From an uncultured Candidatus Saccharibacteria bacterium (GTDB lineage Bacteria; Patescibacteriota; Minisyncoccia; UBA6257; 2-01-FULL-56-20), in the NCBI GenBank assembly GCA_964484655.1, contig CAZAFA010000002.1, positions 123,860-187,859 on the forward strand: a stretch of 64,000 nt of DNA. Direction: 5' to 3'. This document shows, in pieces, positions 7,781-64,000 of the stretch (positions within the stretch are counted from its first letter, which is position 1; the number at the start of each line of letters is the position of its first letter). A program made the position numbers and the translations under genes. The notes under the pieces were generated by a model. That model did not search any database. It saw only the letters and a list, made by a program, of their open reading frames with translations, and was not told the origin of the DNA.

Positions 7781-8162
7781 AGGCGATCGTGAGGAGCGGG
7801 AACGCGGCCCAGAGGAGCCATCCGGCGAGGAAGAGGGATGCGATCAGCGCGTGCGCGGCGAGGCCGCCGGCGAGGCGGCCCATGCGGAAGATCGGGCCGA
7901 TGATCCGGCCGACGAACGAGTAGTCCCCGTACAGCGGGCGGAAGAGCAGGTGGAGCTGCGCGCGGCTCGCCACCGCGTCCTCGAGCGAGCGCGAGACGAG
8001 GCGGTACCGCGCGCGGAAGAACCGGGTCCCGTCGACGTACCAGTGCGCGAAGAACCCGGCGAGTCGGGCGAGGGCGAGCTGCACGAGGTACGAGAGCGCG
8101 AACGTGCCCTGCATGCCCTGAAGTGTAGCACCTAGCCGGATTCGCCCGCGCGTGCGCGGCAC
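7761..8162 (-). CDS. small hypothetical membrane protein
   Basis: Hydrophobic segments; overlaps the start of the Clp-like gene by about 20 nt, which suggests translational coupling. Confidence 0.35.
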
Positions 8163-19681: not shown

Positions 19682-19749
19682 GCCTTGGAAACCGGGAATA
19701 GGGGCCGCGATGCGTGGACAGGCATCGCGGCTCTTTCTACTATGCCGTC

Positions 19750-24006: not shown

Positions 24007-24134
24007 GACGGTTACTATAACGTAGTAATAACTAGGAGTAGTAGGTGTAGGGCCTGGGGATTGTGGGGATAACCATGCCCTGCCGGGATTCCGCCCTTCA
24101 CCCGCAATTCATGCCGGATGCCCTGCCGCGTGGA
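24007..24134. promoter_or_regulatory. candidate oriC element (dnaA-dnaN intergenic)
   Basis: AT-rich stretch tactataacgtagtaataactagg followed by the DnaA-box-like TTGTGGGGATAA (reverse complement TTATCCCCACAA; one mismatch to TTATCCACA). A further TTTTCCACA box lies in the rpmH-dnaA intergenic region (about 25540). Confidence 0.35.
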
Positions 24135-25478: not shown

Positions 25479-25625
25479 GTGAGGCGTGTTGATCAGAAGA
25501 GGAGGTCTCGTTGCGGAGGTATTGTACGGGCTGAAGGTCCCGCGTCAAAGTTTTCCACAGACCAGGAAACAGAACCCGCGAGCTGTCCATTTACATCCGG
25601 AAACCCCTCCTGTATGCTCGGCCCC

Positions 25626-25778: not shown

Positions 25779-26105
25779 ATGATACCGCGCGCCCTCCGAG
25801 CGGACGTTCCTGCCGTGCTCGCGGCGAATCCGCGGCCGCTGCGCCTCCCGTGGGCGAGCGTGCGCGTGCTCGGTACCGAAGGGGAGGGAGGCATCGCGGT
25901 CGTGGTTCCCAAGAAAGCCGCGCGCCTGGCGGTCGATCGCCACAGGGCGAAGCGCCGCGTGGCGGCGGCGCTCTTGGCTTCGCGGAAGCCAGGATATATG
26001 GTCGTGGTGACGCTCATGCCGCCCGGCACGCGCGTCCGCGGACCCCGTCTGCGGGCGTGGTGCGACGAGCTGTGGGCCCGTATACTCGACTCCACGCATG
26101 CTTGA
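25779..26105 (+). CDS. rnpA: RNase P protein component
   Basis: 108 aa, basic, VVPKKAARLAVDRHRAKRR (RNR motif region); canonical position after rpmH. Confidence 0.75.
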   Translation: MIPRALRADVPAVLAANPRPLRLPWASVRVLGTEGEGGIAVVVPKKAARLAVDRHRAKRRVAAALLASRKPGYMVVVTLMPPGTRVRGPRLRAWCDELWARILDSTHA

Positions 26106-26808
26106 GATCTATCACGCCGTCATCGCGGCGCCCCTCCTGAATATCCTCATCGGCCTCTACCAGACCGTGGCGTTCCGCGACCTGGGCCTCGCTATCGCCG
26201 CGCTCACCATCCTCATCCGTCTCGCGTTCTACCCGCTCTTCCAGCGCGGCCTCGAGCAGCAGGCGAAGATGCAGAAGCTGCAGCCGAAGATCAAGGAGAT
26301 CCAGGCCAAGCACAAGGGCAACCATCAGGCGCACTCCCAAGCGCTCATGGCCTTGTATAAGGAGCATGACTTCAACCCGTTCTCGGGCATCCTGATGATG
26401 CTCGTGCAGATCCCGATCCTCATCGCGCTCTACCATCTCTTCCTCGGCATCTTCAGCGCCGACGCGCTCACGCGGCTCTATTCCTTCATCCCGAGCCCGG
26501 GAAGCCTCGATTCCGTCTCCCTCGGACTGATCGATCTCGCGCATCCCTATCTCCCGCTCGTCCTCGTCACCGCGGTCCTGCAGTTCTTCCAGACCAAGCT
26601 CGCGCTCAGCGGGGCGAGGGTCACGGACAAGGCGCAGAGGGTCACCGGCCAGGTCATGTCGCTCGTGGCGCCGCTCATAACGCTCGTCATCTTCTGGAAG
26701 CTACCTGCGGCGGTTTCCGTGTACTGGTTCGTGACCACCGTATTCTCGCTGTTCCAGCAGTACGTCGCGAACAAGAAGATAGAACGGAGCGATGTCGCGG
26801 CCGCTTGA
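26098..26808 (+). CDS. yidC: membrane protein insertase YidC (short Gram-positive/CPR-type)
   Basis: Five TM helices, conserved PLFQRG...KMQKLQP...LYKEH...NP motifs; 236 aa. Confidence 0.85.
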   Translation: MLEIYHAVIAAPLLNILIGLYQTVAFRDLGLAIAALTILIRLAFYPLFQRGLEQQAKMQKLQPKIKEIQAKHKGNHQAHSQALMALYKEHDFNPFSGILMMLVQIPILIALYHLFLGIFSADALTRLYSFIPSPGSLDSVSLGLIDLAHPYLPLVLVTAVLQFFQTKLALSGARVTDKAQRVTGQVMSLVAPLITLVIFWKLPAAVSVYWFVTTVFSLFQQYVANKKIERSDVAAA

Positions 26809-29661: not shown

Positions 29662-30351
29662 TCAGAACGTCGCCGCGGGAAGCACGCGCACGGATCCGCG
29701 CACGGATTCTTCCTTGTTCTGGGGATGCGTGATTGAGAGGCTTAGGAGGACGGCCTCAGGCGGACCTTCTACGGTGAGGACGAGCTGCTGGGGATTCTCG
29801 TTAGCGGAGGGGGGCTGGTTGTCCACGGACCAGCGGTAGATGAGGTCCGTGGCCCTGATGACATTGAATGCGTACGGCACCGCGACGAAGGTGTTCTCGC
29901 CCTCGCTCAGCCGCGGGCTGCTGATGGGGCGTATGACCGCCTTCGGTTTGGTCAGAGGCACGGATATGGACTTGAGCGTGTCCGTGAAAGGCGCGCCGAT
30001 GATCTCAACGCGGGCATCGAGGCTGTCTTGATGGAAGCGCTGGATCGGAACAGTGATCGCCTGCAGGCCGAAGCCGGTCTCGTAGAGCTCGTCGTTCACG
30101 TACCAGCGCACCTCGTATCGGGAAAGGTCAGCCGGCTGCCCGTTCACCAGGGCTTCTGCCAGGATGATGACCGTTCCTCCGCCAGCGGCGGCCACCCTGC
30201 CCTGATAGCTGGCCGGCGCGAAGCCGTTGCTGCGCCAGGACATCATGATCTCGCTGCTCGCGGACTGCCGGGCGACCGGGGTCTGGGCAAGCGCGGTCCG
30301 GATGCCCGCCAAGGACGCGACAAGCGCCAATAACGCGAGCAGCCTGTGCAT
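29662..30351 (-). CDS. secreted hypothetical protein
   Basis: Signal peptide MHRLLALLALVASLAGIRTALAQ. Confidence 0.45.
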   Translation of the reverse strand: MHRLLALLALVASLAGIRTALAQTPVARQSASSEIMMSWRSNGFAPASYQGRVAAAGGGTVIILAEALVNGQPADLSRYEVRWYVNDELYETGFGLQAITVPIQRFHQDSLDARVEIIGAPFTDTLKSISVPLTKPKAVIRPISSPRLSEGENTFVAVPYAFNVIRATDLIYRWSVDNQPPSANENPQQLVLTVEGPPEAVLLSLSITHPQNKEESVRGSVRVLPAATF

Positions 30352-30368
30352 GGGCGGATTATACCCGA

Positions 30369-31160
30369 TTACGAGGAGTTAGGCGTATTATGGGCCCTGC
30401 GTTCCGCCTCGCGCGTCGCCTGTTCGCCGGAGACGTCGATGTTGGCCAGGAGCTCAGTGAAGCCAGGATTGATCTCCCGCTCGACGTCGGCATATATGTC
30501 TGGGCCTGAGTCCCCGTCGGGGCGGTTACGGAGCTTGCCAGGGATGCGCTGGCTCTGCGTCGCGATCCGCTGACGATGCCGTTCAGGGAGGCCGCGGAGC
30601 TTCCCCGGAAGCTTCCGGTTGATACGGTTCCATTCGTGGTCGAACTGCTTGAGGCGTTCCTCTGACGCCGCCCCGAAGATCTTGTTCTTCGAGAGGCGGC
30701 TTCCCGGCTTGCCTCCTCCTGCAAGGGTCCCCTTCTGGGTCATCCTTCCGCGAGCTCCAGTCGGGACCTTGCCCTTCGGAGCCGGCACCTTCTCGGCAAC
30801 CCGCCGGAGCGTCTCGTTCCTGTCGATGGCGATAACTATGAGGATACCGAGCGTATAGAGCGGGAGGAGATCGACGATAGGAATCAGCTCAGCAAGCCAT
30901 GTAAGTACGTTGGCTGCGATCTGCCGGAACTGCGAAGCTCCGACGTAATAGAGATATCCGATGATGGCGATCTCGCAGATCCAGGCGATCGCATCGGTGA
31001 TCGGGATGCCGAGTTCCGCGTAGTTTATCGCGTCCAGGACTATCGTGAATATGAGCAGCGCGACTGCCCCGATCGTGCCGATCTTATGCTGCTTCGCCGC
31101 CGCGTGCTCACGATCGGCTTCGGATGGTATGCCCAGGGCCTTTTCCTGGTATGGGTCCAT
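30369..31160 (-). CDS. hypothetical integral membrane protein with basic C-terminal tail
   Basis: About 3 TM helices, then an R/K-rich region; T4SS-locus context. Confidence 0.45.
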   Translation of the reverse strand: MDPYQEKALGIPSEADREHAAAKQHKIGTIGAVALLIFTIVLDAINYAELGIPITDAIAWICEIAIIGYLYYVGASQFRQIAANVLTWLAELIPIVDLLPLYTLGILIVIAIDRNETLRRVAEKVPAPKGKVPTGARGRMTQKGTLAGGGKPGSRLSKNKIFGAASEERLKQFDHEWNRINRKLPGKLRGLPERHRQRIATQSQRIPGKLRNRPDGDSGPDIYADVEREINPGFTELLANIDVSGEQATREAERRAHNTPNSS

Positions 31161-31163
31161 CTT

Positions 31164-32885
31164 CTATATGAGCCCGGATTCCTCCAGGAGCTGCTGCGGG
31201 TTGGTGGTGATGAGCTTGTCCTCGTAGAACGAGGGGATGATCTGGATCGCGATATGCCGCTGTCCGGCGAAGAAGAGGCCGGTGCCGACCTCGGCGGTCA
31301 GCAGCAGGTTCTTCTCCGAGTCGGTCAGGTTGAAGGCCTTGCCGACGATGTCGATCGTCGCCGGAGCCTGCTTGAGGAGCAGCTGCGAGGACGAGTTCGT
31401 GATGATCGGGCGTCCGAACGGCGAGCGCAGGAAGTCTTCGACGTCCTGCGTGATTGTCGAGACGCCGAGATAGTACTTGCGCGCGCGCTTCACGAGCCCG
31501 AAGAGGAAGTTCGCCGAGTCCTCGTTCTTCATCATGATCCATGCCTCGTCGATGATGAGGATGCGCTTCTGGAACTGGGCTCGGATGAGGTTCCAGATGA
31601 AGTTCAGGATGACGTACATGGCGATCGGGCGGAGCTGCTCTTCGAGGTCGCGGATGCAGAAGACGATGAGGCGGTTGCTCAGGTCGATGTTGGTCGCCTT
31701 GTTCATGAAGCCGGCGAAGCTGCCCTCCGTGTACTTGTAGAGCCGCTCGGCGAGGGCGCGGCCGCCGTCGATGCTCCGCAGGACCGTCTCGAGGTCCTTA
31801 AGGACCGGCGGCTGGGCGTTGGCGAAGTCCTCGCCTGCGACGATCTCGCGGCTGGCGTAGGTCTCGGTGATGGCGCGGTCGATGAGCGCGTCCTCCTCGT
31901 TGGTGATGTTGCCGAGCATGAGGCGGACCAGGCCCGCGACGGAGACGATATGGCTGCGCAGCACGTCGGACGCCGCCTCGTCCTTCGGGATGATCGGGAT
32001 GTCGAACGGGTTGATCGTGTGCTCGCTCGTGAGCGAGATATTGAAGAAGCTGCCGCCGAACGCCTCCGTCAGGCGCTGGTACTCGTTCTCCGGATCGATG
32101 ACGATGACGTGCGTGCCCATCATCAGGGAGCGGATGATCTCGAGCTTGGTCGCGTAGCTCTTGCCGGAGCCGGACTTCGCGAAGACGACCTGGTTCGCGT
32201 TCTCGAGGCTGAAGCGGTCGAAGATGACGAGGCTGTTGTTGTGGCGGTTCACGCCGTACAGGATCCCCTCCTCGCTCATGAGGTCTTCCGAGACGAAGGG
32301 GTAGAAGCTGGAGAGCGGGCCCGAGTTCATCGGCGAGGTAACGTTGATCTTGTCCTGCGCGAGCGGGACCGTGCTCAGGAGTCCCTGCAGCTGCTGGAAG
32401 AGCGCCGGCTTCACGTAGACGAGCTTGGCCTCGAGGATCGAGACGACCTTGTTCTCGAGCTTGGCGAGCAGCTGCTCGGACTCGGCGTAGATCGTGATGT
32501 AGACGCCGACCGTGAAGAGGCGCTCCTCTGCCTGCTGGAGCGTGTCGCGGAGCGATTCCACGTTGTCGAGCGCGGTCTCGAGCATCGGGTCGCGGACCAG
32601 GCCCTTGTCCTGGTTGGTCGCGAGCTGGGCCTCGACCTGCGCCGCCTTCTTCCGGAGGTTCTTGAGCGCGAGGCCCGTATCGAACGGATTGACGAATATG
32701 GCGATGTCGAGCAGCTCGGCGAGGTTCACGATCGGCTCGAACCATCCCGTGACGAGGTAGTTCGGGTAGCCGAAGAAGAACAGGGTCTTGGCGTACTTCG
32801 TCCCGACCTTGAGGAACGAGGAATGCACCTCGACGCCTGCGGGCGAGATGATCGGCTTGGCAGCGTTGAAGGCGGAATCAGGCAT
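31164..32885 (-). CDS. type IV secretion system ATPase, VirB4/TrbE/CagE family
   Basis: Walker A FAKSGSGKSYATK, Walker B-like ILIIDEAW, VirB4 C-terminal ATPase domain pattern; 573 aa. Confidence 0.85.
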   Translation of the reverse strand: MPDSAFNAAKPIISPAGVEVHSSFLKVGTKYAKTLFFFGYPNYLVTGWFEPIVNLAELLDIAIFVNPFDTGLALKNLRKKAAQVEAQLATNQDKGLVRDPMLETALDNVESLRDTLQQAEERLFTVGVYITIYAESEQLLAKLENKVVSILEAKLVYVKPALFQQLQGLLSTVPLAQDKINVTSPMNSGPLSSFYPFVSEDLMSEEGILYGVNRHNNSLVIFDRFSLENANQVVFAKSGSGKSYATKLEIIRSLMMGTHVIVIDPENEYQRLTEAFGGSFFNISLTSEHTINPFDIPIIPKDEAASDVLRSHIVSVAGLVRLMLGNITNEEDALIDRAITETYASREIVAGEDFANAQPPVLKDLETVLRSIDGGRALAERLYKYTEGSFAGFMNKATNIDLSNRLIVFCIRDLEEQLRPIAMYVILNFIWNLIRAQFQKRILIIDEAWIMMKNEDSANFLFGLVKRARKYYLGVSTITQDVEDFLRSPFGRPIITNSSSQLLLKQAPATIDIVGKAFNLTDSEKNLLLTAEVGTGLFFAGQRHIAIQIIPSFYEDKLITTNPQQLLEESGLI

Positions 32886-33549
32886 CGGTCTTTTCGGGGG
32901 CGGCTACGGGGAGGTTGTCCCGCTCGACCGAGTCGGGATTGTAGAAGTTGTAGTAGAGCTCGATGAGCTCCTGGTCGCTCAGGACCGTCGTCTCGAGGCC
33001 GATCTGGTGGATTCCCTCCACCACTGCGTCAACGCGCTGCTGGAGCTGGCTCGCGTTCTCCTTGAACTGCTGCTCGGCGTTCGCCTTCCCCTGCTCGGGG
33101 TCCTTCTTGCGTCCGAAGAACGGCAGCGAGCTCGTGAGGGAGGTCGCCGAAGGCAGCGTCGTCGGATAGAACGGGACCACGACCAGGAAGATCTTGCGCA
33201 TGATGGCGAACTGCGCGACGAAGTCCCTGACGAACTTCTGGTACTCCGTGATCTGGTTGCGGAGGAGGCCGCTCGGCTCGTTGTTGCGACGGGATTCGAG
33301 CATGGCAAGGTAGCGCTCGATGTTGACCTTCCGGGAGTGCACGACGATCTGGAGCTGATAGTCGAGGCTGTTGAGGAATCCCTGGAAGGACTGGATCATG
33401 ACCCCCTGCTCCTCCTCGCTCTTGAGCGCGAAGTTCGTGCCGCCGACCATGACCACGCGGAGCAGGCCGCCGGCCTTGAGGATGACGATGCCGTCGCGGA
33501 TGTCCGCGATGTCGACCAGGTCCTGGGAATTCGCCGCGTTAGCCGCCAT
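32878..33549 (-). CDS. hypothetical protein (T4SS-locus)
   Basis: Coupled (8-nt overlap) to the VirB4 start; no recognisable motif. Confidence 0.4.
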   Translation of the reverse strand: MAANAANSQDLVDIADIRDGIVILKAGGLLRVVMVGGTNFALKSEEEQGVMIQSFQGFLNSLDYQLQIVVHSRKVNIERYLAMLESRRNNEPSGLLRNQITEYQKFVRDFVAQFAIMRKIFLVVVPFYPTTLPSATSLTSSLPFFGRKKDPEQGKANAEQQFKENASQLQQRVDAVVEGIHQIGLETTVLSDQELIELYYNFYNPDSVERDNLPVAAPEKTDA

Positions 33550-33583
33550 ATGCGCTCATTATTCGCGATAGAGTGCGGCCGCG

Positions 33584-34090
33584 CTAGGCGCTGAAGTCCA
33601 CGCGCTTGGCGGCGCGGAGCTCGCCGGTGACCTGGCGGAACACCTCGAAGCGGCTGGAAGGCGCTTCCGTGGCGAGCTGCTTCGCCTCGACCTTGCTGCC
33701 GGTCTCCACGTACTGCCAGGCCTTCTTCAGGCTCGTGCCCGAGATGATGCTCTCCAGGTTGAGCCCGCTTCCCGTCGTGCTCATGGTCTCAGGCGTCTTC
33801 GGCAGGTTCGGGCGCTCTGGCTGCCAGAGATAGAGCTGCGGGTTCCAGTAGAAGAAGAAGCCCAGGACGGCGATCTTCGAGAGCGGCTGTCCGTTGACCT
33901 TGAGGAAGGCCATGCTGCCTCCCGCTGCGCCAACGAGGATCGCGAATACGATGAAGAAGAAGCTCTGGAATACGAAATACAGGGCGAAGATGACGCCTGC
34001 CGTGATACAGAGATAGATGAACTGCCGGATCGTGAACGGTCCGGCGATCTTGTCCTCCGTGTCGATGAACTGGGGTACCTGGTACTGCAT
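33584..34090 (-). CDS. small two-TM membrane protein, possible VirB3/PrgI-like
   Basis: Two adjacent hydrophobic helices (FIYLCITAGVIFALYFVF / FFFIVFAILVGAAGGSMAF). Sits just upstream of the VirB4 module, as VirB3-like genes do. Confidence 0.45.
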   Translation of the reverse strand: MQYQVPQFIDTEDKIAGPFTIRQFIYLCITAGVIFALYFVFQSFFFIVFAILVGAAGGSMAFLKVNGQPLSKIAVLGFFFYWNPQLYLWQPERPNLPKTPETMSTTGSGLNLESIISGTSLKKAWQYVETGSKVEAKQLATEAPSSRFEVFRQVTGELRAAKRVDFSA

Positions 34091-34111
34091 GCGCCTTCTG
34101 GCGCAAGTCTA

Positions 34112-35104
34112 TCACGCCGCAGGCGGCGGCGAAGCGGGAGGAACGTCCTGGATCGGAGCGGGCGCCGGCATCGGCGGAGCGCTCGCAGGCTCGCTGTAGT
34201 TCACGGTCGGGAGCGGCTTGCGGCCGAAGCGGCGCGCGTGCCACGGAGCGATACGGTGCAGGAACGTGCCGAAGATTCCGCTCGCAGGGGGATCGTCGTT
34301 CGGGGGCGTCGCCTGCTGCGTGGTGACGACCTCGATGCTGGGTTGGACGGCGGGCGTGTCGAAGACGGGTGCCGGGGCAGCGGAAAGCGGGACGGGCGCC
34401 GGAATCTCCGCGGGGAGCGGCTGCGGCGGCACGTAGTCGACCGCGCTGATCTCCGGAAGCGGCGTGGCGCGCTCGACGAACACCGAGCGGAACTCCGCGT
34501 CCTTGCGCGGCGCGGCAGGGATGCCGAGGTCGATATGTGCTGCCCGCTGCGGGCCAGGGGTCGCCACAGTGCTGCGGGAGATGTCGCCGGTGTCCTTGAT
34601 GTCGAAGCGGGCGGTCGGCAGAGCGGTTTCCGAGGCTATCGTATCGCGATAGAGCGGGACGGGTGCCGGGATCCCGGAGGGCATCGGGAAGCCCTGCGGG
34701 GGCTTGATGTCCCCGACCGGAAGGGATGCGGGAACGACAGGCGATACCGGGACCGGCAGCGGGAGCTCGGTGGCGCCGCTCGGCTCGGTCGAGAGTTCGC
34801 CGACGCCGATGCCGAAGGCGACGAAGTCGCGCGCGAGCGGCATGAAGATGCGCGCCTTCACGTCCTCGTACAGCGCCGAGGCCTTCTCGCTGGGGAGGCC
34901 CAGCTCGTCCTCGATCACGTCGCGAAGGTCCGAGAAGTCGAGGTCCTTGATCTCGACGTCGAAGAGAATGACGGGGAGGTCCGTCTCGGATTCCGGAAGC
35001 CCGTACTTCTGCTCCAGGTCGGCGATGATCTGGTCCATCTCGTCGCTCCAGAACCAGTCGCGGATGCGACGGGGTACGGATTGGAATTTCTCCTCGATAG
35101 TCAT
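34112..35104 (-). CDS. proline-rich hypothetical protein
   Basis: Acidic N-terminal domain, then P/A/V-rich repeats (PLPVPVSPVVPASLPV, PAPVPL...). Confidence 0.45.
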   Translation of the reverse strand: MTIEEKFQSVPRRIRDWFWSDEMDQIIADLEQKYGLPESETDLPVILFDVEIKDLDFSDLRDVIEDELGLPSEKASALYEDVKARIFMPLARDFVAFGIGVGELSTEPSGATELPLPVPVSPVVPASLPVGDIKPPQGFPMPSGIPAPVPLYRDTIASETALPTARFDIKDTGDISRSTVATPGPQRAAHIDLGIPAAPRKDAEFRSVFVERATPLPEISAVDYVPPQPLPAEIPAPVPLSAAPAPVFDTPAVQPSIEVVTTQQATPPNDDPPASGIFGTFLHRIAPWHARRFGRKPLPTVNYSEPASAPPMPAPAPIQDVPPASPPPAA

Positions 35105-35113
35105 AGGAATCTT

Positions 35114-37465
35114 TTATTTTCCCTTCTCTTTACCCTTCGCTTTTTCCGCCCGGCTCTCACGGCGTGCTTTGCTAAGCTGTTCCATCTTGGCTGTATCAAT
35201 ACGACCAGTGAAATTCACATTATTTTTAAGTGTCTTATACATTGACGTGATGCGAGTCTTAGCATCCTTTATTGAGATACGGTTTGTTTTCTGCTCTGAA
35301 GTGAGATTGACATTGGAATCTTCGTTGTAGAAGAAATCACCAAAAAGGCCAATTTCTTTCTTCTTTTCTTCGGAAAGGGCTTCGAACTTCTGTATTTTCT
35401 GTCGAGCTCTTTCGATTACTTCCGTAATTCGCTCAATTTGTTCGATATTCATATCACCAATTTGCTTGAGCTGAGAATTATTGAGAGCTGTTGTACGTAG
35501 AACGACGCCCTGTCGGGTTTCCAATCCTTCATCCTTTTGATAGTCGAATAGCGAATCATCGAGTGCAAGAGTTGATATATCGTCCCCTTTCACCGAAGGA
35601 ATTTGTGCTGCGACTGCTTCCTGAGTCGTCATTGTACGACTCTTGTCTTTCGTCTTGCCGCGCGGGGCGAGGGCTGCAAGTTGCGGAGCCGAGGGAAGGA
35701 TTTCCTTCAGTACCCCGGAATCCTGGGCCCGCTTAAGTTGACGCTCGAGATCTTTCTTATAAGCTTCTTCGACTTTCTTATATTGCTCACTAGATTGCAG
35801 TCTTTTCTTCTCTTCCTTCACCGCCTTCTTGAGATCCTTACCTTTTAGGCCATCAGCCTTCGCTTTCTTCTCGTAGTCAGCTAGTGCTTTCTCGACTTCC
35901 GGGCTCGCAGATGTCGCGAGGCCGCCGAGCGCCTTCTTCTCCTTGAGGAGCTTGAAGATGGCCGCCTCGCGGTCGGGGTTCGCGGCGAGCTGGCCGGAAG
36001 CCAGCCGGCGCCGCTCCGCGAGCAACGCGCTGGTAGTGAGGTTCTTGAGGCTGTCCTGCTCGTCCTGCACGCGCTGCTCGACCGACTTCTTGTTCGCGAC
36101 GCCGGCGTCCGCCATGTAGCGTCCTACCGTACCCGCGCCTGCCATGCGCGCGATCCTGCTGTTAGAGGAGAGCGTGGAGAGCCTGCTGCCCATGCGCTGC
36201 AAGCGCGAGTTCCCATCCTTGTCCTTGCCCGACGTGCGCACGCGATCGAGCGTCCGCATGCCTGCCGCCGACGCTCTTCGCTTGACAGAGTTACCTACGG
36301 AAGCGAACGCAGCCTTGCCGGAGTCCATGAACTTGATGCCGAGCTTCGAGGAGAAGTACAGGCCGCCGTAGAGCGTCCCGGAGATGAGGATGAAATTGAG
36401 GCTGCTCGTGATGATCGGCTTCGCCGCCGCGCCGAAGGTCTTGAAGAGGAACCCGCTGATGCCGCCGCCAGCGGTATCGGCGCTGCCGAGACCCGTCAGC
36501 TGGGCGTCGTCGAGGACGTGGGCGCCATTGATGAAGGCCGCGGTCTTCATGCTCAGGTAGAGGAAGAACATCGCCATGGGGGCGAAGAAGGTCCACTTCA
36601 CGAACTTGTCCGACCAGTAGCTCACGAGGCCCCTGCCGAAGGGGAATATCCAGGCGAGCCATACCGCGGGCATGATGATGAGCAGGAGCGAGAGCGTCAC
36701 GTAGCGCGCGGCGAATGCGGCGAGCATGATGCCGAAGAAGATCACGAGCAGGATGCTCATGATGACGGTCATGTAGATGCCGGCGATCGCCGCGAACATG
36801 CCTGCGGTGTCGGCAGCGAACTTGCTCGTCGCGTCCGAGAAGATAGTCTCCTCCTTCACCTCGGTGCTGAATCCGGCGTTCAGGAAGGCCTTCTGGGGAT
36901 TGAAGGCTCCCGCGAGGTTGTCCGCGAATTCGAGGATGCCCACCCCGATATCCGCCGTGGGATTGGGGACGGAATTGTTGATGAAGAATTCCGTAAGCCT
37001 GTCCGAGAAGTTGATGGCGGTGCCTGCCAGGATGAGGCTGAAGTTCACGCCAATGGCGGCGATCACGATCTTCCAGAGCAGCTGCTTCGCGCCGTAGGTG
37101 TCGTACCGGATGATCGTCGCGACCGCCATGATGATCACCGCGGCGACGAAGGCAATGTTCGCGAAGGCGAGGACAATCGAGAATCCGAACTGGACCGAGG
37201 TTGAATTGACGAGGTCGAAGTTGAGCTTGAGGAGGAACTGGAAGAAGAAGACCTCGATGATCGTGATGATGTTCAGGAGGATGCCTATGAGGTAGGCGAT
37301 GTAGTAGGCAACCTTCTGGACGAGCGAGAAGGCGACATCGGATATGCCCGTGAGTTCGCCGACCCAGCCCAGGATGCCCGCGTGCGCTTCTTGAGGAACC
37401 AGAAAGGCAGCGCCTGCGAGGACCGCAGCCAGGACGAGAGAGACGGGTTTGATGCGCTTATTCAT
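35114..37465 (-). CDS. VirB6/TrbL-like polytopic membrane protein with long K/E-rich coiled-coil C-terminal domain
   Basis: About 8-9 TM helices in the N-terminal 420 aa. The C-terminal 360 aa are Lys/Glu-rich heptad-like; this AT-rich DNA is at 35150-35900. Confidence 0.65.
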   Translation of the reverse strand: MNKRIKPVSLVLAAVLAGAAFLVPQEAHAGILGWVGELTGISDVAFSLVQKVAYYIAYLIGILLNIITIIEVFFFQFLLKLNFDLVNSTSVQFGFSIVLAFANIAFVAAVIIMAVATIIRYDTYGAKQLLWKIVIAAIGVNFSLILAGTAINFSDRLTEFFINNSVPNPTADIGVGILEFADNLAGAFNPQKAFLNAGFSTEVKEETIFSDATSKFAADTAGMFAAIAGIYMTVIMSILLVIFFGIMLAAFAARYVTLSLLLIIMPAVWLAWIFPFGRGLVSYWSDKFVKWTFFAPMAMFFLYLSMKTAAFINGAHVLDDAQLTGLGSADTAGGGISGFLFKTFGAAAKPIITSSLNFILISGTLYGGLYFSSKLGIKFMDSGKAAFASVGNSVKRRASAAGMRTLDRVRTSGKDKDGNSRLQRMGSRLSTLSSNSRIARMAGAGTVGRYMADAGVANKKSVEQRVQDEQDSLKNLTTSALLAERRRLASGQLAANPDREAAIFKLLKEKKALGGLATSASPEVEKALADYEKKAKADGLKGKDLKKAVKEEKKRLQSSEQYKKVEEAYKKDLERQLKRAQDSGVLKEILPSAPQLAALAPRGKTKDKSRTMTTQEAVAAQIPSVKGDDISTLALDDSLFDYQKDEGLETRQGVVLRTTALNNSQLKQIGDMNIEQIERITEVIERARQKIQKFEALSEEKKKEIGLFGDFFYNEDSNVNLTSEQKTNRISIKDAKTRITSMYKTLKNNVNFTGRIDTAKMEQLSKARRESRAEKAKGKEKGK

Positions 37466-39785
37466 CGAGCAGAGTGAGCGGCAGGTTGCACGCCCTGTCC
37501 TTGAGGTTGTCCCGGGCGTCCTGGGCGAGCGACTGCATCTGGCCGTTCCGCGTGGTGGCGCGCGTCGCGAGAGTGGCGACCTGCGAATTGATGATGTCGA
37601 GGGAGCCGATGAGATCGGAGATCGCCATAGCGCTCGTCGCCGTATTGATGGCTTCCGTCGTGGAAGCGAGCTGCGCGATCACGGTCCCGATCGAGGTGCC
37701 GTCGGTGCTGACGCGCGGCGCGATCCGGTCTATGGCTCCGAGTCGCTGGCTCGCCGTCTCGGCGAGCGCAGGGCAGGTAGCGCCGACGGATATCAGGAGC
37801 GGCTGGGTCGAAGAGGCGTGCCCCGTCCAGGCCGCGATGTCGTTGCGGACGCTGCTCGCGCGACCCTGGTGGGCAGTAGCGAGCTGCAGGGCCTGCGCGC
37901 GGACCGAAGCGAGGCTCGACTGGTCCTCGCCGCCCCCGCTGGTGCTCGTGCCGTTGCCGTTCCCCGATCCGCCTCCGCTTCCGGACTCGCCGTTGAACAG
38001 GCCGAGCAACCCTCCTACCGCGAGATTGGTCAGTCGCGAGATCGCAGCATCCACTACCGCGGCGACGAGGCCGGCGAGATCGTTCGCGTTGACCACGTTG
38101 TCGAGCGTGCCGCCCAGCGACTTGGATACCTGGTCGGCGACAGCGCCGCCCGGAGTCGTCTGTTGCCAGCCGTCCGAGGCACACATCTCTACCTCGCAGG
38201 TCTGAAGATAGGGGTCACCGCCGTCGTAACAACGGATAAGCCTACGGAAGTTAGGGTCTCGCCTGAGCTCGTCAGCTTCGCGTTCATCAGCAGTTATAAC
38301 CTCCGTTTTAACGCACCGCCTCATACCCGTGTAGCCGCGGTTCGACTCCGCATTCGTTGAAGCGGATTCCTTCGCGCCGGCCGCTTCGTGCATGGCGGTC
38401 TCGCCGGCTACGACGATTGCGCCCCAGGCGTTGTTCTGCGGTTCGAGGATGAGAGTCGCGAATCCGATCCAGCCTCCTGACCTGAAGTCCTCGTAGAAAT
38501 CCTTCACGCTCGCGACGATCTGGTCCAGGGTGCAGGTGAATTGCTGATAGGGGTCGCGGGAGCCGCTGACGCTATTGGGGGCCGTAGCTCTGAGGAAGTC
38601 GGTCGTGAATGCGCGCAGGTTCTGGCAGAGCTTCGGCTCGATCTTGTTGATGAGCGTGTTGACCGCGCCTACCGCGCTGTCCTTAAGGAAGCCCTTCCAG
38701 TTGGTGATGAACTGCGGCTTACCGCCTCCTTGTACCCATTTGATCGTCTGTTGGATGAGACGGCCTACGATCTGGTTCTTGAGGATCTGCAGCGCGATGC
38801 TCTTAAGTTCCCTCACAATGAGCTGACCCCATGTGCCGTAGTCCGCGATGCCGTTGATGATCGTCTTGACGATGTGCCCGAAGTCGATGACCGGCCAGCC
38901 CGCGTTGGCGCGCGGGATACCAAGCAGCGAAGCCAGGAGGAGCGGCTTGTGCGCTCCTGAAGAGAGCGACTCGTACTGCAGCTGTTCGGCTTCCGCTTGG
39001 AGCTTGTTGCCCTCGTACGCGAGGAGCTCCGGATACTTCGTCGTGAAGACCACCGCCTTGAGCGGGTCGGTCGTGTAGTCGAGGTCGGTGAGCTTCCGGT
39101 TGAGCTCGAAGTAGGTCAGCGCCTGCTCGTGGAGCTTCTGCGCGGGAGCGGGCACGACCGCGTTGTAGAGCTTCTCCTGCGCCTGCGCGAGGAGGAAGTT
39201 GCTCGCCTCGATCGCCGCGGGCGTCGGCTGGCTCCCGCTCCGCGCCATCACTGCGCTCATGCCGCCGGACGTGGTGCTCGCCATGGAGAAGGTCTCCTCG
39301 AGCGTCGAGAGGTAAGCGTCGAGCTGCTCCTGGGTGTAGTTCTTGGCGACCTTCAGTCTGCTGCGGTCGATGGCGTACGTGGTCGGCGTGAGGGCAGCGT
39401 CGGTGACGTACTGGTCCACGACGTCCTGGAGGTTGTTCGGGAGGAGCACGCCGGTACCTTGGGTCAGGTCGGGGCCTTCAGGGTTGGCTTTGACGAAGTT
39501 GTAGGCGAGGCCCTTCGCGAGCTCGTCCGTGTAGTTCCCCTCGACATCGGTCCGCGGCGTGAACTCGGCTGCGAGGTCGTAGCCCTCGATGCGCGTCGTC
39601 GCGATATCCTCTACGAAAGCGCGGTCGCCGATCTTCGGGACCTGCTTCTGCGCCTGCTGCGTAGCGGCCGCAGGTCCCTCTCCTTTCTGCCGCGCGAGGC
39701 TCGTGAAGGCCAGGGACGCGGATCCGGCCAGGAGCGCGAGCACCAGGAACGTCGTGATGAGTTTACGGAGCTCGTGAGCCTGCAT
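37458..39785 (-). CDS. large secreted/surface protein of the T4SS-like locus
   Basis: Start placed at MQAHELRKLITTFLVLALLAGSASLA (signal/anchor). A G/S/N-rich linker (GESGSGGGSGNGNGTSTSGGGED) separates two domains; several conserved Cys residues. Confidence 0.55.
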   Translation of the reverse strand: MQAHELRKLITTFLVLALLAGSASLAFTSLARQKGEGPAAATQQAQKQVPKIGDRAFVEDIATTRIEGYDLAAEFTPRTDVEGNYTDELAKGLAYNFVKANPEGPDLTQGTGVLLPNNLQDVVDQYVTDAALTPTTYAIDRSRLKVAKNYTQEQLDAYLSTLEETFSMASTTSGGMSAVMARSGSQPTPAAIEASNFLLAQAQEKLYNAVVPAPAQKLHEQALTYFELNRKLTDLDYTTDPLKAVVFTTKYPELLAYEGNKLQAEAEQLQYESLSSGAHKPLLLASLLGIPRANAGWPVIDFGHIVKTIINGIADYGTWGQLIVRELKSIALQILKNQIVGRLIQQTIKWVQGGGKPQFITNWKGFLKDSAVGAVNTLINKIEPKLCQNLRAFTTDFLRATAPNSVSGSRDPYQQFTCTLDQIVASVKDFYEDFRSGGWIGFATLILEPQNNAWGAIVVAGETAMHEAAGAKESASTNAESNRGYTGMRRCVKTEVITADEREADELRRDPNFRRLIRCYDGGDPYLQTCEVEMCASDGWQQTTPGGAVADQVSKSLGGTLDNVVNANDLAGLVAAVVDAAISRLTNLAVGGLLGLFNGESGSGGGSGNGNGTSTSGGGEDQSSLASVRAQALQLATAHQGRASSVRNDIAAWTGHASSTQPLLISVGATCPALAETASQRLGAIDRIAPRVSTDGTSIGTVIAQLASTTEAINTATSAMAISDLIGSLDIINSQVATLATRATTRNGQMQSLAQDARDNLKDRACNLPLTLLDE

Positions 39786-39839
39786 AGTCTCTGATGAATT
39801 GTACGTTAAGCAGGCGCTACCGCACAACGAAAATGGGGA

Positions 39840-47670: not shown

Positions 47671-47733
47671 GGAATGTTTAGCGCCAAACATTCCTGACAA
47701 ACATGTTTGTCGCCCGGATTTGCTCGATTTCTG
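47671..47733. promoter_or_regulatory. second copy of the B+A palindrome module plus the shared 12-mer TTGCTCGATTTC
   Basis: GGAATGTTTAGCGCCAAACATTCC immediately followed by CTGACAAACATGTTTGTCG and TTTGCTCGATTTC; same arrangement as at 43119-43152 and 43254-43299. Confidence 0.8.
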
Positions 47734-47805
47734 AGCGGGTAAGGGGAGTCGAACCCCTGCCTTCTCCTTGGAAGGGAGACGCACTACCGCTATGCAATAC
47801 CCGCG
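47734..47805 (-). tRNA. tRNA-Gly (anticodon TCC)
   Basis: Folded by hand: acceptor GCGGGTA/TACCCGC, anticodon stem-loop TCTCC-CTTCCAA-GGAGA, T-arm GGGGT-TCGACTC-CCCCT. Confidence 0.8.
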
Positions 47806-47897: not shown

Positions 47898-47971
47898 GGC
47901 ACCCATAGCTCAACGGTTAGAGCAGTCGTCTTATACACGACCGGTTCCTGGTTCGAGTCCAGGTGGGTGCA
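47898..47971 (+). tRNA. tRNA with anticodon TAT (Ile-UAU type)
   Basis: Acceptor GCACCCA/TGGGTGC, D-arm GCTC-AACGGTTA-GAGC, anticodon arm GTCGT-CTTATAC-ACGAC, T-arm CCTGG-TTCGAGT-CCAGG, discriminator A; CCA not encoded. Confidence 0.7.
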
Positions 47972-47974
47972 CAG

Positions 47975-60382: not shown

Positions 60383-60598
60383 ATGAACGAGCTGCAGGAG
60401 ATCAGGGACCGCCTCGCGCGTCTCGAGGAGAGAACGGAGGCGATCTTCGCATCGGCGGAGAAGACGCGGAAGTACCTCAAGGCCGCCTTCTACGTCACCG
60501 TGATCACGGTCGTGCTCCCGCTGCTCGGCGTCCTGTTGCTGGTCCCGTACCTGATGCGGACGCTCGGCGCGTACGGCGACCTGCTCAACGGATTGTGA
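60383..60598 (+). CDS. small coiled-coil/TM hypothetical protein (71 aa)
   Basis: Charged helix followed by TM VTVITVVLPLLGVLLLVPYL; ends at a strong terminator. Confidence 0.4.
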   Translation: MNELQEIRDRLARLEERTEAIFASAEKTRKYLKAAFYVTVITVVLPLLGVLLLVPYLMRTLGAYGDLLNGL

Positions 60599-60647: not shown

Positions 60648-60649
60648 TG

Positions 60650-60722
60650 GGTGTCCGACCGGATTCGAACCGGCAACCGCCAGAGCCACAATCTGGAGCT
60701 CTACCATTAAGCTACGGACACC
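60650..60722 (-). tRNA. tRNA-His (anticodon GTG) with encoded G-1
   Basis: G(-1) + acceptor GTGTCCG/CGGACAC, anticodon arm CCAGA-TTGTGGC-TCTGG, T-arm GCCGG-TTCGAAT-CCGGT, discriminator C. Confidence 0.8.
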
Positions 60723-60792
60723 ATGCCGCGGAACTGTAGCATGCGTCCCAAATAGTGACAACAACAAACATACGTGGTATGGTTGCGCGCAC

Positions 60793-61299
60793 ATGCCTGA
60801 ATACGCGGCGGATATCCTCACCCAGGTCGAAGCGACCCGAGCCGTCTCGCCGGTCGCGTTCGCTCTCGTGGCGTTCGGGACCACCTTCTTCGGCAACCTG
60901 GTCGCGATTCCTGCGATGGTCCTCGGCTTCAGCGGCAAGCTCGGGCACAACGGCTGGTTCATGGCGCCACTTGCGGTCCTCAGCGGGCATTACTTCGGCG
61001 ACGCGAGCTGGTACACGATTGGCCGCGGCCTCTCCGAGACGCGCGCCGGTGACTGGATCCGCCGCAAGCTCCCCCGCCACAAGCGCATCGAGCGGTTCTT
61101 CGAGACGGGGAGCGTGACGATCCTCGCGGTCTCGAAGCTCCTCGCGGGCACGACCATGCCGATCCTCTTCCTCCTCGGCTGGTACCGGACGCGCCCGGAG
61201 CGGTACCTGCGGCTCTCGTTCCTGACCGGCCTCCTCTGGTTCGTGGTCGCGCTGACGGCAGCGCTGCTCGTCTATTCGGGCATCCGCCTCGTGTTCTGA
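60793..61299 (+). CDS. DedA/VTT-family membrane protein
   Basis: 168 aa, about 4 TM, conserved G-x-x-x-[GA]-containing VTT-like core (SGHYFGDASWYTIGRGL). Confidence 0.5.
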   Translation: MPEYAADILTQVEATRAVSPVAFALVAFGTTFFGNLVAIPAMVLGFSGKLGHNGWFMAPLAVLSGHYFGDASWYTIGRGLSETRAGDWIRRKLPRHKRIERFFETGSVTILAVSKLLAGTTMPILFLLGWYRTRPERYLRLSFLTGLLWFVVALTAALLVYSGIRLVF

Positions 61300-61359
61300 G
61301 GACCATGAAGAGAGCGATAGTCTATACTGTCCGTATTACCCCGTAACCTCCCTCCGCCC

Positions 61360-64000
61360 ATGCCAAACCCCGATCAGATCCCCCCGGTAGATCCTCAGGA
61401 GAAGAACGAACTTCCTGCTTCTGAGCCGACGCCGGCGCCCGAGCTCATCCGCATCACTGACGACGAGCCCGTCATAGAGAGCGAGGCGCAGCGGCAGGCA
61501 CGACTCAGCGAGCTGCGCTCAGAACTCAAGGGCGGCTTGGGCGACGAGGAGATCGACAGTATGGTCGAGGGCATCGGGGCCCAGAAGGAGGGCCCGGTCC
61601 GCGACATAGCGGCGATCGAATCCGACCTCCGCCGCGCGAGCGAGGAGTCGCAACGGATCCTCCAGGAGCAGGGGAAGGAGGCTTTCGAAAAGTACGTCGC
61701 CGCGAACGAGCATCTCATCGACGAGTACAAGGCCGCCGGCGGCCAGCGTCAGAACGCGCAGATCGACATGGGCGAGCGGGTCGGATACAAGGGCGCGGAG
61801 CAGCCGACTCAGGAGCCGCAGAAGGGCGAGGTCGTCAGCGACCAGGATCTGGAGAAGGCCGTCCGGAAGGAGATGGGAAGCGAGGCCGGCCTTCTGCCGC
61901 ACGAGCAGGCGGAGATCGTCCATCGCGCGGCCGACGAGATCATCGAGAACGTCGGCGACGTCCTGGCGTTCATCCAGGATCCGAAGGCCGTGCAGCGGTT
62001 CGGCAACCTCATGGCAGGCAAGATGGATCTCCCGACCGGCGCCATCGGGATGAAGGAACTCGACGAGGTGCTCTATAACAGCCTTCAGGAAGTGAAGCAG
62101 CGCCTTCCGGAAGTCCGCCGCCAGCTTCTGGCAGAACCGGCGATTGGGACTGTGGAGCGGGATCTCAGGGACAGCAAGCTCCAGCAGCTCGCCAATCTCG
62201 AGCAGATCATCGACGCCAAGAGCGCTGCCGCCGCGAAGCCGCTGGATCTCGAGGGAATCAGTGAGCAGGAATTGAATAAGGCCTTCCCTGGAGATGCGAA
62301 GGATGCGATGCCGGACGCGACGCCCCCGACCCATCTGAATGAGAAGGGCGAATGGGATGCCCAGGGCTCTGCTCGCGCGGGTGCGCCGGAGAGCGCGAGC
62401 TCGGAGGAGCAGGCCCTCCAATCAGCGATCGAGCGCCTGGATGCCGAGGCATCCGAGCAACATGCGAGGTATCTTGAGCTGAAGGACGCCGGCGACCTCG
62501 ACGGCGCTGAAGCTGCCAAGAATCGGGCGATAGAGCTGCTGAACCAGAAATACGGCGAGGAGGATCGCCTCAAGGAGCTCAGGGACAAGGAAGCTACGGC
62601 TCCCGGCAGCGCTCCGCTCCCAGGTGAGCCCGAGCTGGTGCGCATCACCGACGAGGACGAGCCGATGGAGGACGGCTCGTGGAAGATGCCCGCGCCTAGG
62701 TTCGTGTCGACGCCGGGAGAGAATCCGGCCGACAAGGCGAAGGAAAGCGCCCCACAGGCCGACGCGCTCCCGGATAAGTTCGAGGAAGAGGCTCCGCAAG
62801 CCATTACGGATTACGCAGAATGGGCGAAGGGTGAGATCTCCGTGCGCGACGGCGGCGATTATCTCAACCAGCTCCAGGAGCAGATGTTCCGCGAGACGGA
62901 CGAGGATAAGAAGCTCGATCTCGCGCAGAAGATCAGCGCCGGCGAGGCTCGGTTGAACGAGCTGCGTGCTGAAGCGCAGGCCATCGCGAACAACGCCGCG
63001 ACGCCGGAGACGACGCCGGCAGGAGAGCCGCCGGTCGAGCCTCTGGAAGCTGCCGCGGCCGAGCAGGCGCCAGAGCTCAAGACGCTCCGCAACGCGAAGG
63101 TCGACGCTGCCGATCGCCTGACCGCCTGGTTCCGCGGGCAGGACAAGGAATCCGAGTTCCGCGGGAAGTTCGGCAACCTGAAGCAGAAGCTCTACAGCGG
63201 CATCAACGCGCTCACGAAGTCGGAGTGGCAGGGCCGCCCCGCGAACCAGGCGCAAGCCGTGGTCAAGGAGCTTGTCGCGAAGATGATCGAGGACCCGACG
63301 CTCGACCCGAAGGCCGCGCTCGCGGAGAAGCTCGCCGAGAACCCCAAGGGCATCGAGAACATCGATCCGGAATCGGAATCGGCCCGCATCATCCTGGACG
63401 CCGTCCGCGCGGAGCACGCGTACAAGGCGCAGCGCGCCGAGCTCGTCTCAGAGTTCCGCGCAGGGTATCCGGCCGGCATCGACGCGTACAATAAGGCGCA
63501 TCGCGAGGAGGACCTCTTCAAGAAGTTCGTACTCGCCGAGCTCGACCGCGAGCAGGATTACCGCGAGCAGAAGCTCGAAGCGGAGCGCAGCAAGGCAGGG
63601 AAGCTCGCGCGGAAGGCCGCGGGCGTCATGGGCCGTGCCTACAAGGGGACGTTCGGCAAGCTCACGCCTGCCCAGCGCATCGCCGTCGGCGTGGTCGTCG
63701 GTTCCGCGATCGGTATCGCCCTCACCGGTGGCGTCGCGGGAGCTGGCGCGATCATCGGATACCGCGCGTTCCGCGGTGCCGGATCGTACCTGACCGCCAA
63801 GGGTTCGGCTTCCATCTACGAGAAGGTTGCCGGCTTCTTCCACGGCACGAAGGACAGCCGCGAGATGGCGGCGGACGCAGCGAAGGACCTTGAGAAGGCC
63901 GAGGACAAGCTCGAGCTCTTCCAGGCTATCGAGAAGGCTACCGCCGAGGCCGCGCGTGCGCGGAGCGTCGAGGCGAAGATAAACCGCCGGAAGGGCATCG
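61360..64000 (+). CDS. very large coiled-coil protein, E/K/A/D-rich, with C-terminal TM region (partial: runs off the window end; more than 880 codons)
   Basis: Manual translation from ATG at about 61360 (MPNPDQIPPVDPQEKNELPASEPTPAPELIRITDDEPVIE...) stays open to the window edge. The composition is consistently protein-like. A hydrophobic stretch IAVGVVVGSAIGIALTGGVAGAGAIIGYRAF lies near 63660-63760. It is not in the ORF track, which lists only stop-delimited ORFs; the track ORFs over this span are all antisense. Confidence 0.6.
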   Translation, partial: MPNPDQIPPVDPQEKNELPASEPTPAPELIRITDDEPVIESEAQRQARLSELRSELKGGLGDEEIDSMVEGIGAQKEGPVRDIAAIESDLRRASEESQRILQEQGKEAFEKYVAANEHLIDEYKAAGGQRQNAQIDMGERVGYKGAEQPTQEPQKGEVVSDQDLEKAVRKEMGSEAGLLPHEQAEIVHRAADEIIENVGDVLAFIQDPKAVQRFGNLMAGKMDLPTGAIGMKELDEVLYNSLQEVKQRLPEVRRQLLAEPAIGTVERDLRDSKLQQLANLEQIIDAKSAAAAKPLDLEGISEQELNKAFPGDAKDAMPDATPPTHLNEKGEWDAQGSARAGAPESASSEEQALQSAIERLDAEASEQHARYLELKDAGDLDGAEAAKNRAIELLNQKYGEEDRLKELRDKEATAPGSAPLPGEPELVRITDEDEPMEDGSWKMPAPRFVSTPGENPADKAKESAPQADALPDKFEEEAPQAITDYAEWAKGEISVRDGGDYLNQLQEQMFRETDEDKKLDLAQKISAGEARLNELRAEAQAIANNAATPETTPAGEPPVEPLEAAAAEQAPELKTLRNAKVDAADRLTAWFRGQDKESEFRGKFGNLKQKLYSGINALTKSEWQGRPANQAQAVVKELVAKMIEDPTLDPKAALAEKLAENPKGIENIDPESESARIILDAVRAEHAYKAQRAELVSEFRAGYPAGIDAYNKAHREEDLFKKFVLAELDREQDYREQKLEAERSKAGKLARKAAGVMGRAYKGTFGKLTPAQRIAVGVVVGSAIGIALTGGVAGAGAIIGYRAFRGAGSYLTAKGSASIYEKVAGFFHGTKDSREMAADAAKDLEKAEDKLELFQAIEKATAEAARARSVEAKINRRKGI

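Follow-up and report, generated by a model that had tools for sequence, protein, structure and literature searches.

A large gene at the edge of a GC-rich Saccharibacteria window encodes a 1312-residue membrane protein with a putative envelope-spanning layout

The window analysed here is a stretch of 64,000 nucleotides from an uncultured Candidatus Saccharibacteria bacterium (GenBank assembly GCA_964484655.1, contig CAZAFA010000002.1), and its subject is the plus-strand frame that opens at position 61360 and runs off the right-hand edge, called the large gene below. A sequence-only reading had described its product as a coiled-coil, membrane-anchored protein of more than 880 amino acids (aa), with repeated ELxRITD motifs and a likeness to the tail of a VirB6-like protein encoded in the same window.

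61360..64000, plus strand: large gene, in-window part (aa 1-880), supported by the absence of stops and by third-position GC (GC3) and codon statistics; full length from database protein P0001 and contig L001

Between 61360 and 63999 the frame contains 880 codons and zero stops, and its translation opens with MPNPDQ. A mechanical list of open reading frames (ORFs) omits the large gene, only because frames running off the source were not listed; over 61360-64000 it contains some twelve ORFs of 60-331 aa that are antisense or out of frame. The GC contents at the three codon positions (GC1/GC2/GC3) are 0.71/0.42/0.83, matching the coding pattern of a 65% GC genome. Scored with a codon table built from eleven confidently identified housekeeping genes of the window, the large-gene frame was the best of the six (mean log-likelihood per codon -3.64, 0 stops); the best antisense frame reached -4.02 with 3 stops, and the remaining frames -4.3 to -5.1 with 12-33 stops. 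Re-translation in search of a stop or frameshift, and a codon and GC3 comparison with the antisense ORFs, had been named as the ways to overturn the frame, and both came out in its favour.

The continuous frame of more than 880 aa proposed in the sequence-only reading is also confirmed by P0001, a 1312-aa database protein identical to the window translation across 880 residues and encoded on two Logan contigs, L001 and L002. Since L001 is 100% identical to the window across the whole 8,051-nt overlap, the large gene can safely be extended past the edge; the contig supplies the missing stop, a TAA that lies 1,298 nt past the edge (window-equivalent position 65298), for a gene of 3,939 nt. P0001 contains no cysteine, and MP are the first two residues in all three members of the family described below. 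No Shine-Dalgarno-like sequence was found before the start, either in the window (61340-61359) or in the two relatives; the upstream sequence reads CCTCCCTCCGCCC-ATG, a pyrimidine run whose CCTCC core is anti-Shine-Dalgarno-like rather than Shine-Dalgarno-like. A DNA tandem-repeat search of the large gene gave nothing of note. It is close to certain that the large gene is real and that the domain map given below is correct.

When aa 581-880 were used as the query in an exhaustive phmmer search of 1.84 billion cluster representatives, exactly two relatives emerged: P0002, of 1402 aa, at 38% identity (E = 1e-31), and P0003, of 1132 aa, at 35% identity (E = 1e-28). P0001, P0002 and P0003 are each an unnamed singleton cluster. 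The relatives' contigs, L042 (55% GC) and L043 (62% GC), have the same gene order as L001: histidine kinase, PolA, TsaE, a hypothetical protein, a VTT/DedA-like protein, the large gene, a DUF5663-like protein and FtsH. In the three genomes, the histidine kinase, PolA, TsaE and the 173-183-aa hypothetical protein share one strand, while the opposite strand encodes a 70-78-aa tail-anchored protein, the 168-169-aa VTT/DedA-like protein, the large gene, the 102-aa DUF5663-like protein, whose gene begins 10 nt after the large-gene stop, and FtsH. Identity between genomes is 78-79% for PolA and FtsH, 70-75% for the kinase, 66-70% for the DUF5663-like protein and 55% for the VTT-like protein, compared with 29-34% for the large protein, whose gene is the fastest-evolving of the locus. 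This fast evolution and the rarity of the lineage account for the protein's orphan appearance.

Other searches yielded no further members. No relative was detected in a scan of GTDB representative genomes with P0001, or in two scans of JGI metagenomes that used the C-terminal alignment and the DUF5663-like one, and 39 PolA-anchored loci of the candidate phyla radiation (CPR), searched by tblastn with P0001 only and with profiles A2 and A4, contained neither a relative nor a positional analogue. Word-indexed protein searches returned only P0001 itself, a weak negative, as the index seems incomplete for these proteins or regions: a search with the C-terminal 320 aa of P0001 returned nothing, not even P0001, and P0002 and P0003 never appeared despite sharing words of 8-10 residues in the C1 domain, a pattern that seems due to the index's limits and not to biology. 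No paper mentioning DUF5663 was found.

Upstream of the large gene, the window contains the following features.

60755..60783, plus strand: sigma-70-like promoter match, candidate operon promoter, by consensus match only; 10 nt upstream of the 168-aa gene
60793..61299, plus strand: 168-aa multi-pass membrane protein, weakly VTT/DedA-like in the relatives, with 55% identical orthologues at the same position in L042 and L043

The L042 orthologue of the 168-aa protein matched VTT_dom at E = 3.9e-6, below the Pfam cut-off. A consensus scan detected no promoter-like or terminator-like site between the genes from the VTT-like gene on, including before the large gene. The VTT/DedA-like, large, DUF5663-like and FtsH genes are probably one operon, which would place the large gene among genes of envelope biogenesis and membrane quality control. 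The candidate promoter has a divergent sigma-70-like partner on the minus strand (60761-60733; two matches found vs 0.1 expected), and the pair, spanning 60733-60783, sits between tRNA-His (minus strand, 60649-60721) and the start of the 168-aa gene (60793). As the plus-strand match ends 10 nt before the ATG, a transcript from it, if used, would be near-leaderless.

Two small conserved ORFs accompany these genes. The 70-78-aa protein has an N-terminal helix and a C-terminal hydrophobic anchor (MNELQEIRDRLARLEERTEAIF…) and lies upstream of tRNA-His in the three genomes (window 60383-60598, plus strand; L042 8516-8728; L043 4819-5055); it has no family match. In both relatives, a conserved 42-60-aa helical ORF (…FRKDIADLIERHE…RQERLAELRSTI; L042 9817-9999 and L043 6451-6579, both plus strand) ends 1 nt before the large-gene start, and this junction (TAA-C-ATG) suggests translational coupling there. 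The ORF is absent from the window, where 61300-61359 is only a 60-nt spacer. Residues 45-58 of P0001 (RQARLSELRSELKG) resemble the end of this ORF, which may reflect partial absorption into P0001 or a chance likeness.

All three large proteins share one domain order, running from a variable acidic N-terminal region to a conserved tail. In the list, residues are numbered on P0001 and identities are those of P0001 to P0002 / P0003.

61360..63069, plus strand: N-region, aa 1-570, identity 21% / 7%; acidic, predicted to be cytoplasmic and largely disordered with short helices
63070..63678, plus strand: juxtamembrane domain, aa 571-773, identity 31% / 32%; slightly basic, with many invariant residues, all-alpha
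63679..63771, plus strand: hydrophobic segment H1, aa 774-804, identity 55% / 45%; Kyte-Doolittle peak 2.12
63772..63993, plus strand: loop, aa 805-878, identity 38% / 30%; charged, amphipathic, ending in a conserved EAKIxRRK
starting at 63994..64000, plus strand: hydrophobic helix H2, aa 879-897, IAAVLAGGAFALGSGYI, identity 53% / 53%; Kyte-Doolittle peak 1.46
past the window edge, plus strand: stalk, aa 898-995, identity 19% / 30%; Pro/Thr/Gly-rich, with TTKP-like repeats
past the window edge, plus strand: C1, aa 996-1121, identity 61% / 66%; the best-conserved part
past the window edge, plus strand: linker 2, aa 1122-1171, identity 6% / 34%; Thr-rich
past the window edge, plus strand: C2, aa 1172-1281, identity 41% / 60%; alpha/beta domain
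past the window edge, plus strand: tail, aa 1282-1312, identity 39% / 45%; PKPSxNV...IPxPPxNP

The N-region carries a net charge of -60 in P0001 and of -51 and -28 in the relatives, is 570, 600 and 222 aa long in the three proteins, and has almost no invariant positions among them. In all three it falls on the disordered side of the charge-hydropathy boundary, apart, in P0001, from an island near aa 176-300; the linkers share this side, and C1 and C2 fall on the folded one. AlphaFold2 (AF2) models the juxtamembrane domain as all-alpha, with block-mean confidence (pLDDT) mostly at 65-89. With the C-terminal alignment it gave pLDDT values of 71-85 for the C1 helices and 72-86 for C2, whose secondary-structure order is helix, helix, beta-hairpin and three helices; the beta part of C1 and all linkers were poorly modelled. 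H1, the Gly/Ala-rich transmembrane-like segment that had been noticed near 63.7 kb, is present in all three proteins with a length of 28-33 residues, a conserved GxxxGS and a central LTG(G/P) break. H2 begins in the last two codons of the window and continues beyond the edge. The P0003 stalk contains three extra repeats of ~30 aa. The Pro/Thr-rich stalk and the two best-conserved domains, like most of the second hydrophobic helix, lie past the edge, and these parts shift the picture from a membrane-anchored coiled coil to a putative envelope-spanning protein.

No match to the family was found in Pfam, NCBIfam and PHROGs (E <= 0.01) or in PDB sequence-profile and fold searches. A LysM-like reading of C1, prompted by "YKVGRGEGIW...", was dropped since it had no profile support. 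Two phage lysozymes, 3hde and 4zpu, have signal-arrest-release anchors that H2 (profile positions 332-361 of A4) matched at chance level (E = 1.5-1.7), a compositional likeness only. A membrane anchor that is Gly/Ala-rich and weakly hydrophobic can, however, behave dynamically.

The coiled-coil description and the ELxRITD repeat fared less well than the frame itself. The two motif copies are as follows.

61438..61479, plus strand: motif copy 1, PELIRITDDEPVIE, aa 27-40; present, not above chance, not conserved
62629..62670, plus strand: motif copy 2, PELVRITDEDEPME, aa 424-437; present, not above chance, not conserved

Both strings exist. Their ungapped BLOSUM62 segment-pair score of 46 was reached by 18 of 40 composition-preserving shuffles, their DNA is identical at 45 of 91 positions, and the motif is absent from P0002 and P0003. 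We therefore do not take the pair as a sign of a functional repeat, as it is no more than chance would give in an acidic, biased sequence. In home-made periodicity and heptad tests (not COILS or MARCOIL), the period-3.5 power of aa 1-570, where a heptad-like periodicity had been proposed, lay below the shuffle mean and was reached by 72% of shuffles. The longest run free of Pro and Gly in aa 1-773 is 40 aa, and only three short heptad-like stretches of ~28-60 aa were detected (aa 344-410, 515-548 and 828-891). As its helical stretches are all short and the charge-hydropathy plot puts most of the N-terminus on the disordered side, the protein does not appear to be a coiled coil, and a long coiled-coil scaffold of the EzrA, DivIVA or SMC-like kind was rejected because extended heptad periodicity without helix breakers was not found.

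The membrane topology was read from the charges flanking the two hydrophobic segments, counted as Lys plus Arg in 15 residues and given in the order P0001/P0002/P0003. The counts are 4/4/2 before H1 and 3/3/2 after it, and 6/5/4 before H2 and 1/0/1 after it. If the positive-inside rule holds, the chain would be cytoplasmic on either side of H1 and throughout the loop, and only the part after H2 would lie outside. AF2 draws H1, at low confidence, as helix-break-helix; given also its length of 28-33 residues and conserved central Gly/Pro break, H1 is best read as a re-entrant hairpin and H2 as a single span. The large protein has no signal-peptide-like hydrophobic N-terminus. Composition and modelling together give some preference to an N-in/C-out arrangement, in which ~880 residues would be cytoplasmic, one span would cross the membrane and ~415 residues would lie outside as a Pro/Thr-rich stalk with two conserved modules.

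Alternatively, H1 and H2 may both be true spans, leaving only a loop of ~75-90 aa outside and both termini in the cytoplasm. The protein would then be a membrane-tethered scaffold or regulator, such as an adaptor, modulator or substrate of the co-encoded FtsH. Both segments are adequately hydrophobic, the DUF5663-like gene and FtsH lie directly downstream in the three genomes, and Pro/Thr-rich linkers occur in cytoplasmic proteins too. We nevertheless consider two spans unlikely, if conceivable, as the loop is rich in Lys and Arg at both ends (3/3/2 and 6/5/4) and the segment after H2 is not, which contradicts an external loop under the positive-inside rule, and H1 is 28-33 residues long with a break conserved at its centre.

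By analogy with known landmark proteins, we suggest that the large protein is a transmembrane, envelope-spanning scaffold or landmark, and give this mechanism as a whole a probability of about 35%. The conserved outer domains C1 and C2 would be held out on the Pro/Thr-rich stalk into the cell wall or surface layer, where their ligand would be a conserved component of the envelope, peptidoglycan or else a protein of the wall or surface. On the inner side, the juxtamembrane domain and the long acidic disordered arm would recruit or space cytoplasmic partners. The mode of action would be that of MapZ in streptococci and, in inverted orientation, of HubP/FimV in proteobacteria, and the protein would be expressed with the DedA/VTT-like protein, the small DUF5663-like protein and FtsH, probably from one operon. 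Of the surface or septal scaffold put forward in the sequence-only reading, the scaffold role stays the most plausible interpretation.

Several points weigh against the scaffold proposal. No divisome or polarity gene adjoins the large gene, and no conserved short motif that could serve as a partner-binding site was detected in the N-region of the three proteins. The topology is derived from the positive-inside rule and a low-confidence AF2 segment, the AF2 alignments consist of three sequences only and gave weak models (mean pLDDT 55 and 58), and the operon structure is deduced from spacing and a consensus promoter scan only.

Should C1 and C2 be displayed outside, they could face a host rather than the cell's own wall. 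The large protein would in that case serve an episymbiotic CPR cell as a surface adhesin or in host interaction, with the stalk presenting both domains to the host surface and the fast turnover reflecting host adaptation. The divergence of the large protein (29-34% identity in genome pairs whose PolA and FtsH are 78-79% identical) would fit such a role, as would the Pro/Thr-rich stalk, the predicted outward-facing C-terminus, the extra ~30-aa stalk repeats in P0003, and the presence in the genome of a pilB ATPase and a cluster resembling a type IV secretion system (T4SS), typical of CPR bacteria. However, the putatively exposed C1 and C2 are the most conserved parts, whereas in adhesins the tip usually varies most; for a pure adhesin it would be wasteful to have two thirds of its length, a conserved domain included, on the predicted cytoplasmic side; and the protein has neither a signal peptide nor a sortase signal nor any known adhesin domain. 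On balance, an adhesin appears unlikely.

It is very unlikely that the protein is an anti-sigma or RsgI-type transducer, in which an outer C1-C2 sensor would control the cytoplasmic juxtamembrane domain, and this domain would keep a small partner, for instance the DUF5663-like protein, sequestered until regulated proteolysis by FtsH releases it. Many anti-sigma factors do consist of a cytoplasmic domain, a transmembrane helix, a Pro/Thr linker and an outer domain, and the DUF5663-like gene, which starts 10 nt after the large-gene stop, encodes a protein with a very weak match to a sigma-factor family in NCBIfam (E = 0.05). That match, at 13.5 bits, is far below the 265-bit cut-off, no anti-sigma, zinc-binding or sigma-factor domain was detected at a meaningful score, and a 570-aa acidic disordered arm is foreign to anti-sigma factors. 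Finally, high-GC DNA does yield long spurious ORFs, several antisense ORFs of 100-330 aa overlap the region, and tape measure proteins are likewise Ala/Glu-rich with internal Gly/Ala-rich hydrophobic segments, a superficial likeness; a frame open by chance over real antisense genes, or a phage or mobile-element protein such as a tape measure, is refuted by the stop-free frame with the best codon statistics, by homologues that keep their domains and their chromosomal synteny among housekeeping genes (polA, tsaE, tRNA-His and ftsH flank the gene in the three genomes, with no phage context), and by the lack of a PHROGs family at E <= 0.01.

To our knowledge, CPR bacteria lack most of the textbook division-positioning and polarity proteins. 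An envelope-spanning scaffold, if that proposal is true, would be a first candidate for how an ultra-small CPR cell marks positions on its envelope. A bolder version, which we think improbable, would make the large protein a Patescibacteria-specific counterpart of a division-site or polar landmark, a beacon that reads the wall through its two outer domains and organizes the divisome, pili/T4SS or FtsH-dependent quality control through its acidic arm, having evolved independently of MapZ and HubP/FimV. Soberly considered, the protein founds a three-member, fast-evolving orphan family in a rare high-GC CPR lineage and is an ordinary lineage-specific hypothetical membrane protein, one among many such lineage-restricted proteins in Patescibacteria. 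The practical value then lies in a corrected annotation: a real gene for 1312 aa, a domain map and a three-member family with conserved operon partners, with the coiled-coil and VirB6-like ideas removed.

Regarding the chromosomal setting, the housekeeping genes of the window encode a PAS histidine kinase, PolA, TsaE, tRNA-His, FtsK, a cytidylate kinase-like protein, NusA, TyrRS/TrpRS, UvrD and KsgA, together with DnaA, DnaN, YidC, RuvA, RuvB, IF3, a ClpB-like ATPase, a PilB-type ATPase and the T4SS-like cluster. The best PolA matches in GTDB representative genomes show 32-43% identity, and most are Patescibacteria/CPR metagenome-assembled genomes labelled Paceibacterota, Saccharibacteria or Wolfebacteria. 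These neighbours and matches indicate that the window is a chromosomal segment from an unusually GC-rich (65%), poorly sampled CPR lineage. A class A penicillin-binding protein is encoded at 19702-22227, and the organism is therefore taken to make peptidoglycan. The genes dnaN (22900-24108, minus strand) and dnaA (24135-25544, minus strand) adjoin yidC (26011-26808, plus strand), a grouping that probably places the replication origin in the window, yet the cumulative GC skew rises throughout with no turning point. The ClpB-like ATPase gene (5330-7843, minus strand) lies in the most GC-rich stretch (0.747 at 6-8 kb, GC3 0.95); Pfam matched its second AAA module and lid only, and four other frames contain long spurious ORFs. 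At 47899-47972 (plus strand), a tRNA-Ile whose anticodon is UAU adjoins a divergent tRNA-Gly(UCC) at 47733-47804. Bacteria mostly read AUA with a lysidine-modified CAU anticodon; a tRNA-Ile(UAU) dedicated to this codon is uncommon among them, and its presence here may reflect the reduced set of tRNA-modification genes in CPR bacteria. The T4SS-like cluster occupies 29662-39827 on the minus strand and includes several small unmatched ORFs; GC falls to 0.585 at 34-36 kb within it. Its main genes are as follows.

31164-32885, minus strand: VirB4/TraC-like ATPase
33584-34090, minus strand: PrgI-like (VirB3-type) protein
35114-37465, minus strand: polytopic VirB6-like protein with a basic, Lys-rich tail
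37458-39827, minus strand: 789-aa protein with no family match

Among the known systems considered for comparison, the VirB6-like protein of this cluster is the one encoded in the window itself. It and the large protein are both large membrane proteins with a long charged, low-complexity extension, but the resemblance that had been noted is superficial: the VirB6-like tail is Lys-rich with a net charge of +23, as opposed to -60 for the N-region, the best blastp match between the two proteins has E = 2.2, and the two genes, 24 kb from each other, differ in strand. The VirB6-like protein, which is polytopic, is encoded within a PrgI/VirB4-type cluster, and the large gene lies outside it. A VirB6/TrbL-type T4SS channel protein was accordingly rejected, there being no Pfam match either. 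FtsN, with its SPOR domain, and RodZ consist of a cytoplasmic part, a transmembrane helix, a Pro/Thr- or Pro/Gln-rich linker and a small C-terminal outer domain. The predicted order of parts in the large protein is the same, but its cytoplasmic part is far larger, no SPOR, HTH or DUF4115 domain was found in it with Pfam, and the secondary-structure order of C2 does not fit the SPOR fold.

HubP/FimV proteins combine a LysM-like outer domain, a transmembrane region and a large acidic cytoplasmic domain (PMC12918733). Like HubP, FimV and TspA of Gammaproteobacteria, the large protein is a very large membrane protein with a long acidic, poorly conserved and length-variable region, predicted to be cytoplasmic, beside the membrane, and with a small conserved domain on the putative outer side. 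The acidic region is C-terminal in HubP and N-terminal here. No LysM was detected in Pfam (E <= 1) or NCBIfam, no LysM chain of the PDB at E <= 10 with the C-terminal profile, and the C-terminal FimV/TPR motif is absent, with no Pfam or NCBIfam match in the three proteins, so that no homology is indicated.

In MapZ, the cytoplasmic N-terminal domain is disordered and contains amphipathic membrane-binding helices, there is a single transmembrane helix, and the extracellular domain is bi-modular, its flexible linker being Ser-rich (PMC4931243, PMC7055233). The predicted disordered cytoplasmic N-region, amphipathic helices near the membrane, single span and two small outer domains with a flexible Ser/Thr-rich linker of the large protein resemble MapZ/LocZ, as does the fact that these outer domains are the best-conserved part. 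MapZ/LocZ is, however, a system of Firmicutes, and the protein described here comes from Patescibacteria, is about three times longer and includes two additional parts, a conserved all-alpha juxtamembrane domain of 200 aa and a putative Gly/Ala-rich hairpin. Neither sequence, profile nor fold similarity to the cytoplasmic or extracellular domains of MapZ was found, and the conserved N-terminal FtsZ-binding peptide was not detected in the family. In layout, the large protein nonetheless appears closest to MapZ, and we infer that its likeness to MapZ and HubP is one of analogy, not homology; if the scaffold proposal is true, the design of a disordered arm, a transmembrane segment, a stalk and two outer modules would have arisen by convergent evolution.

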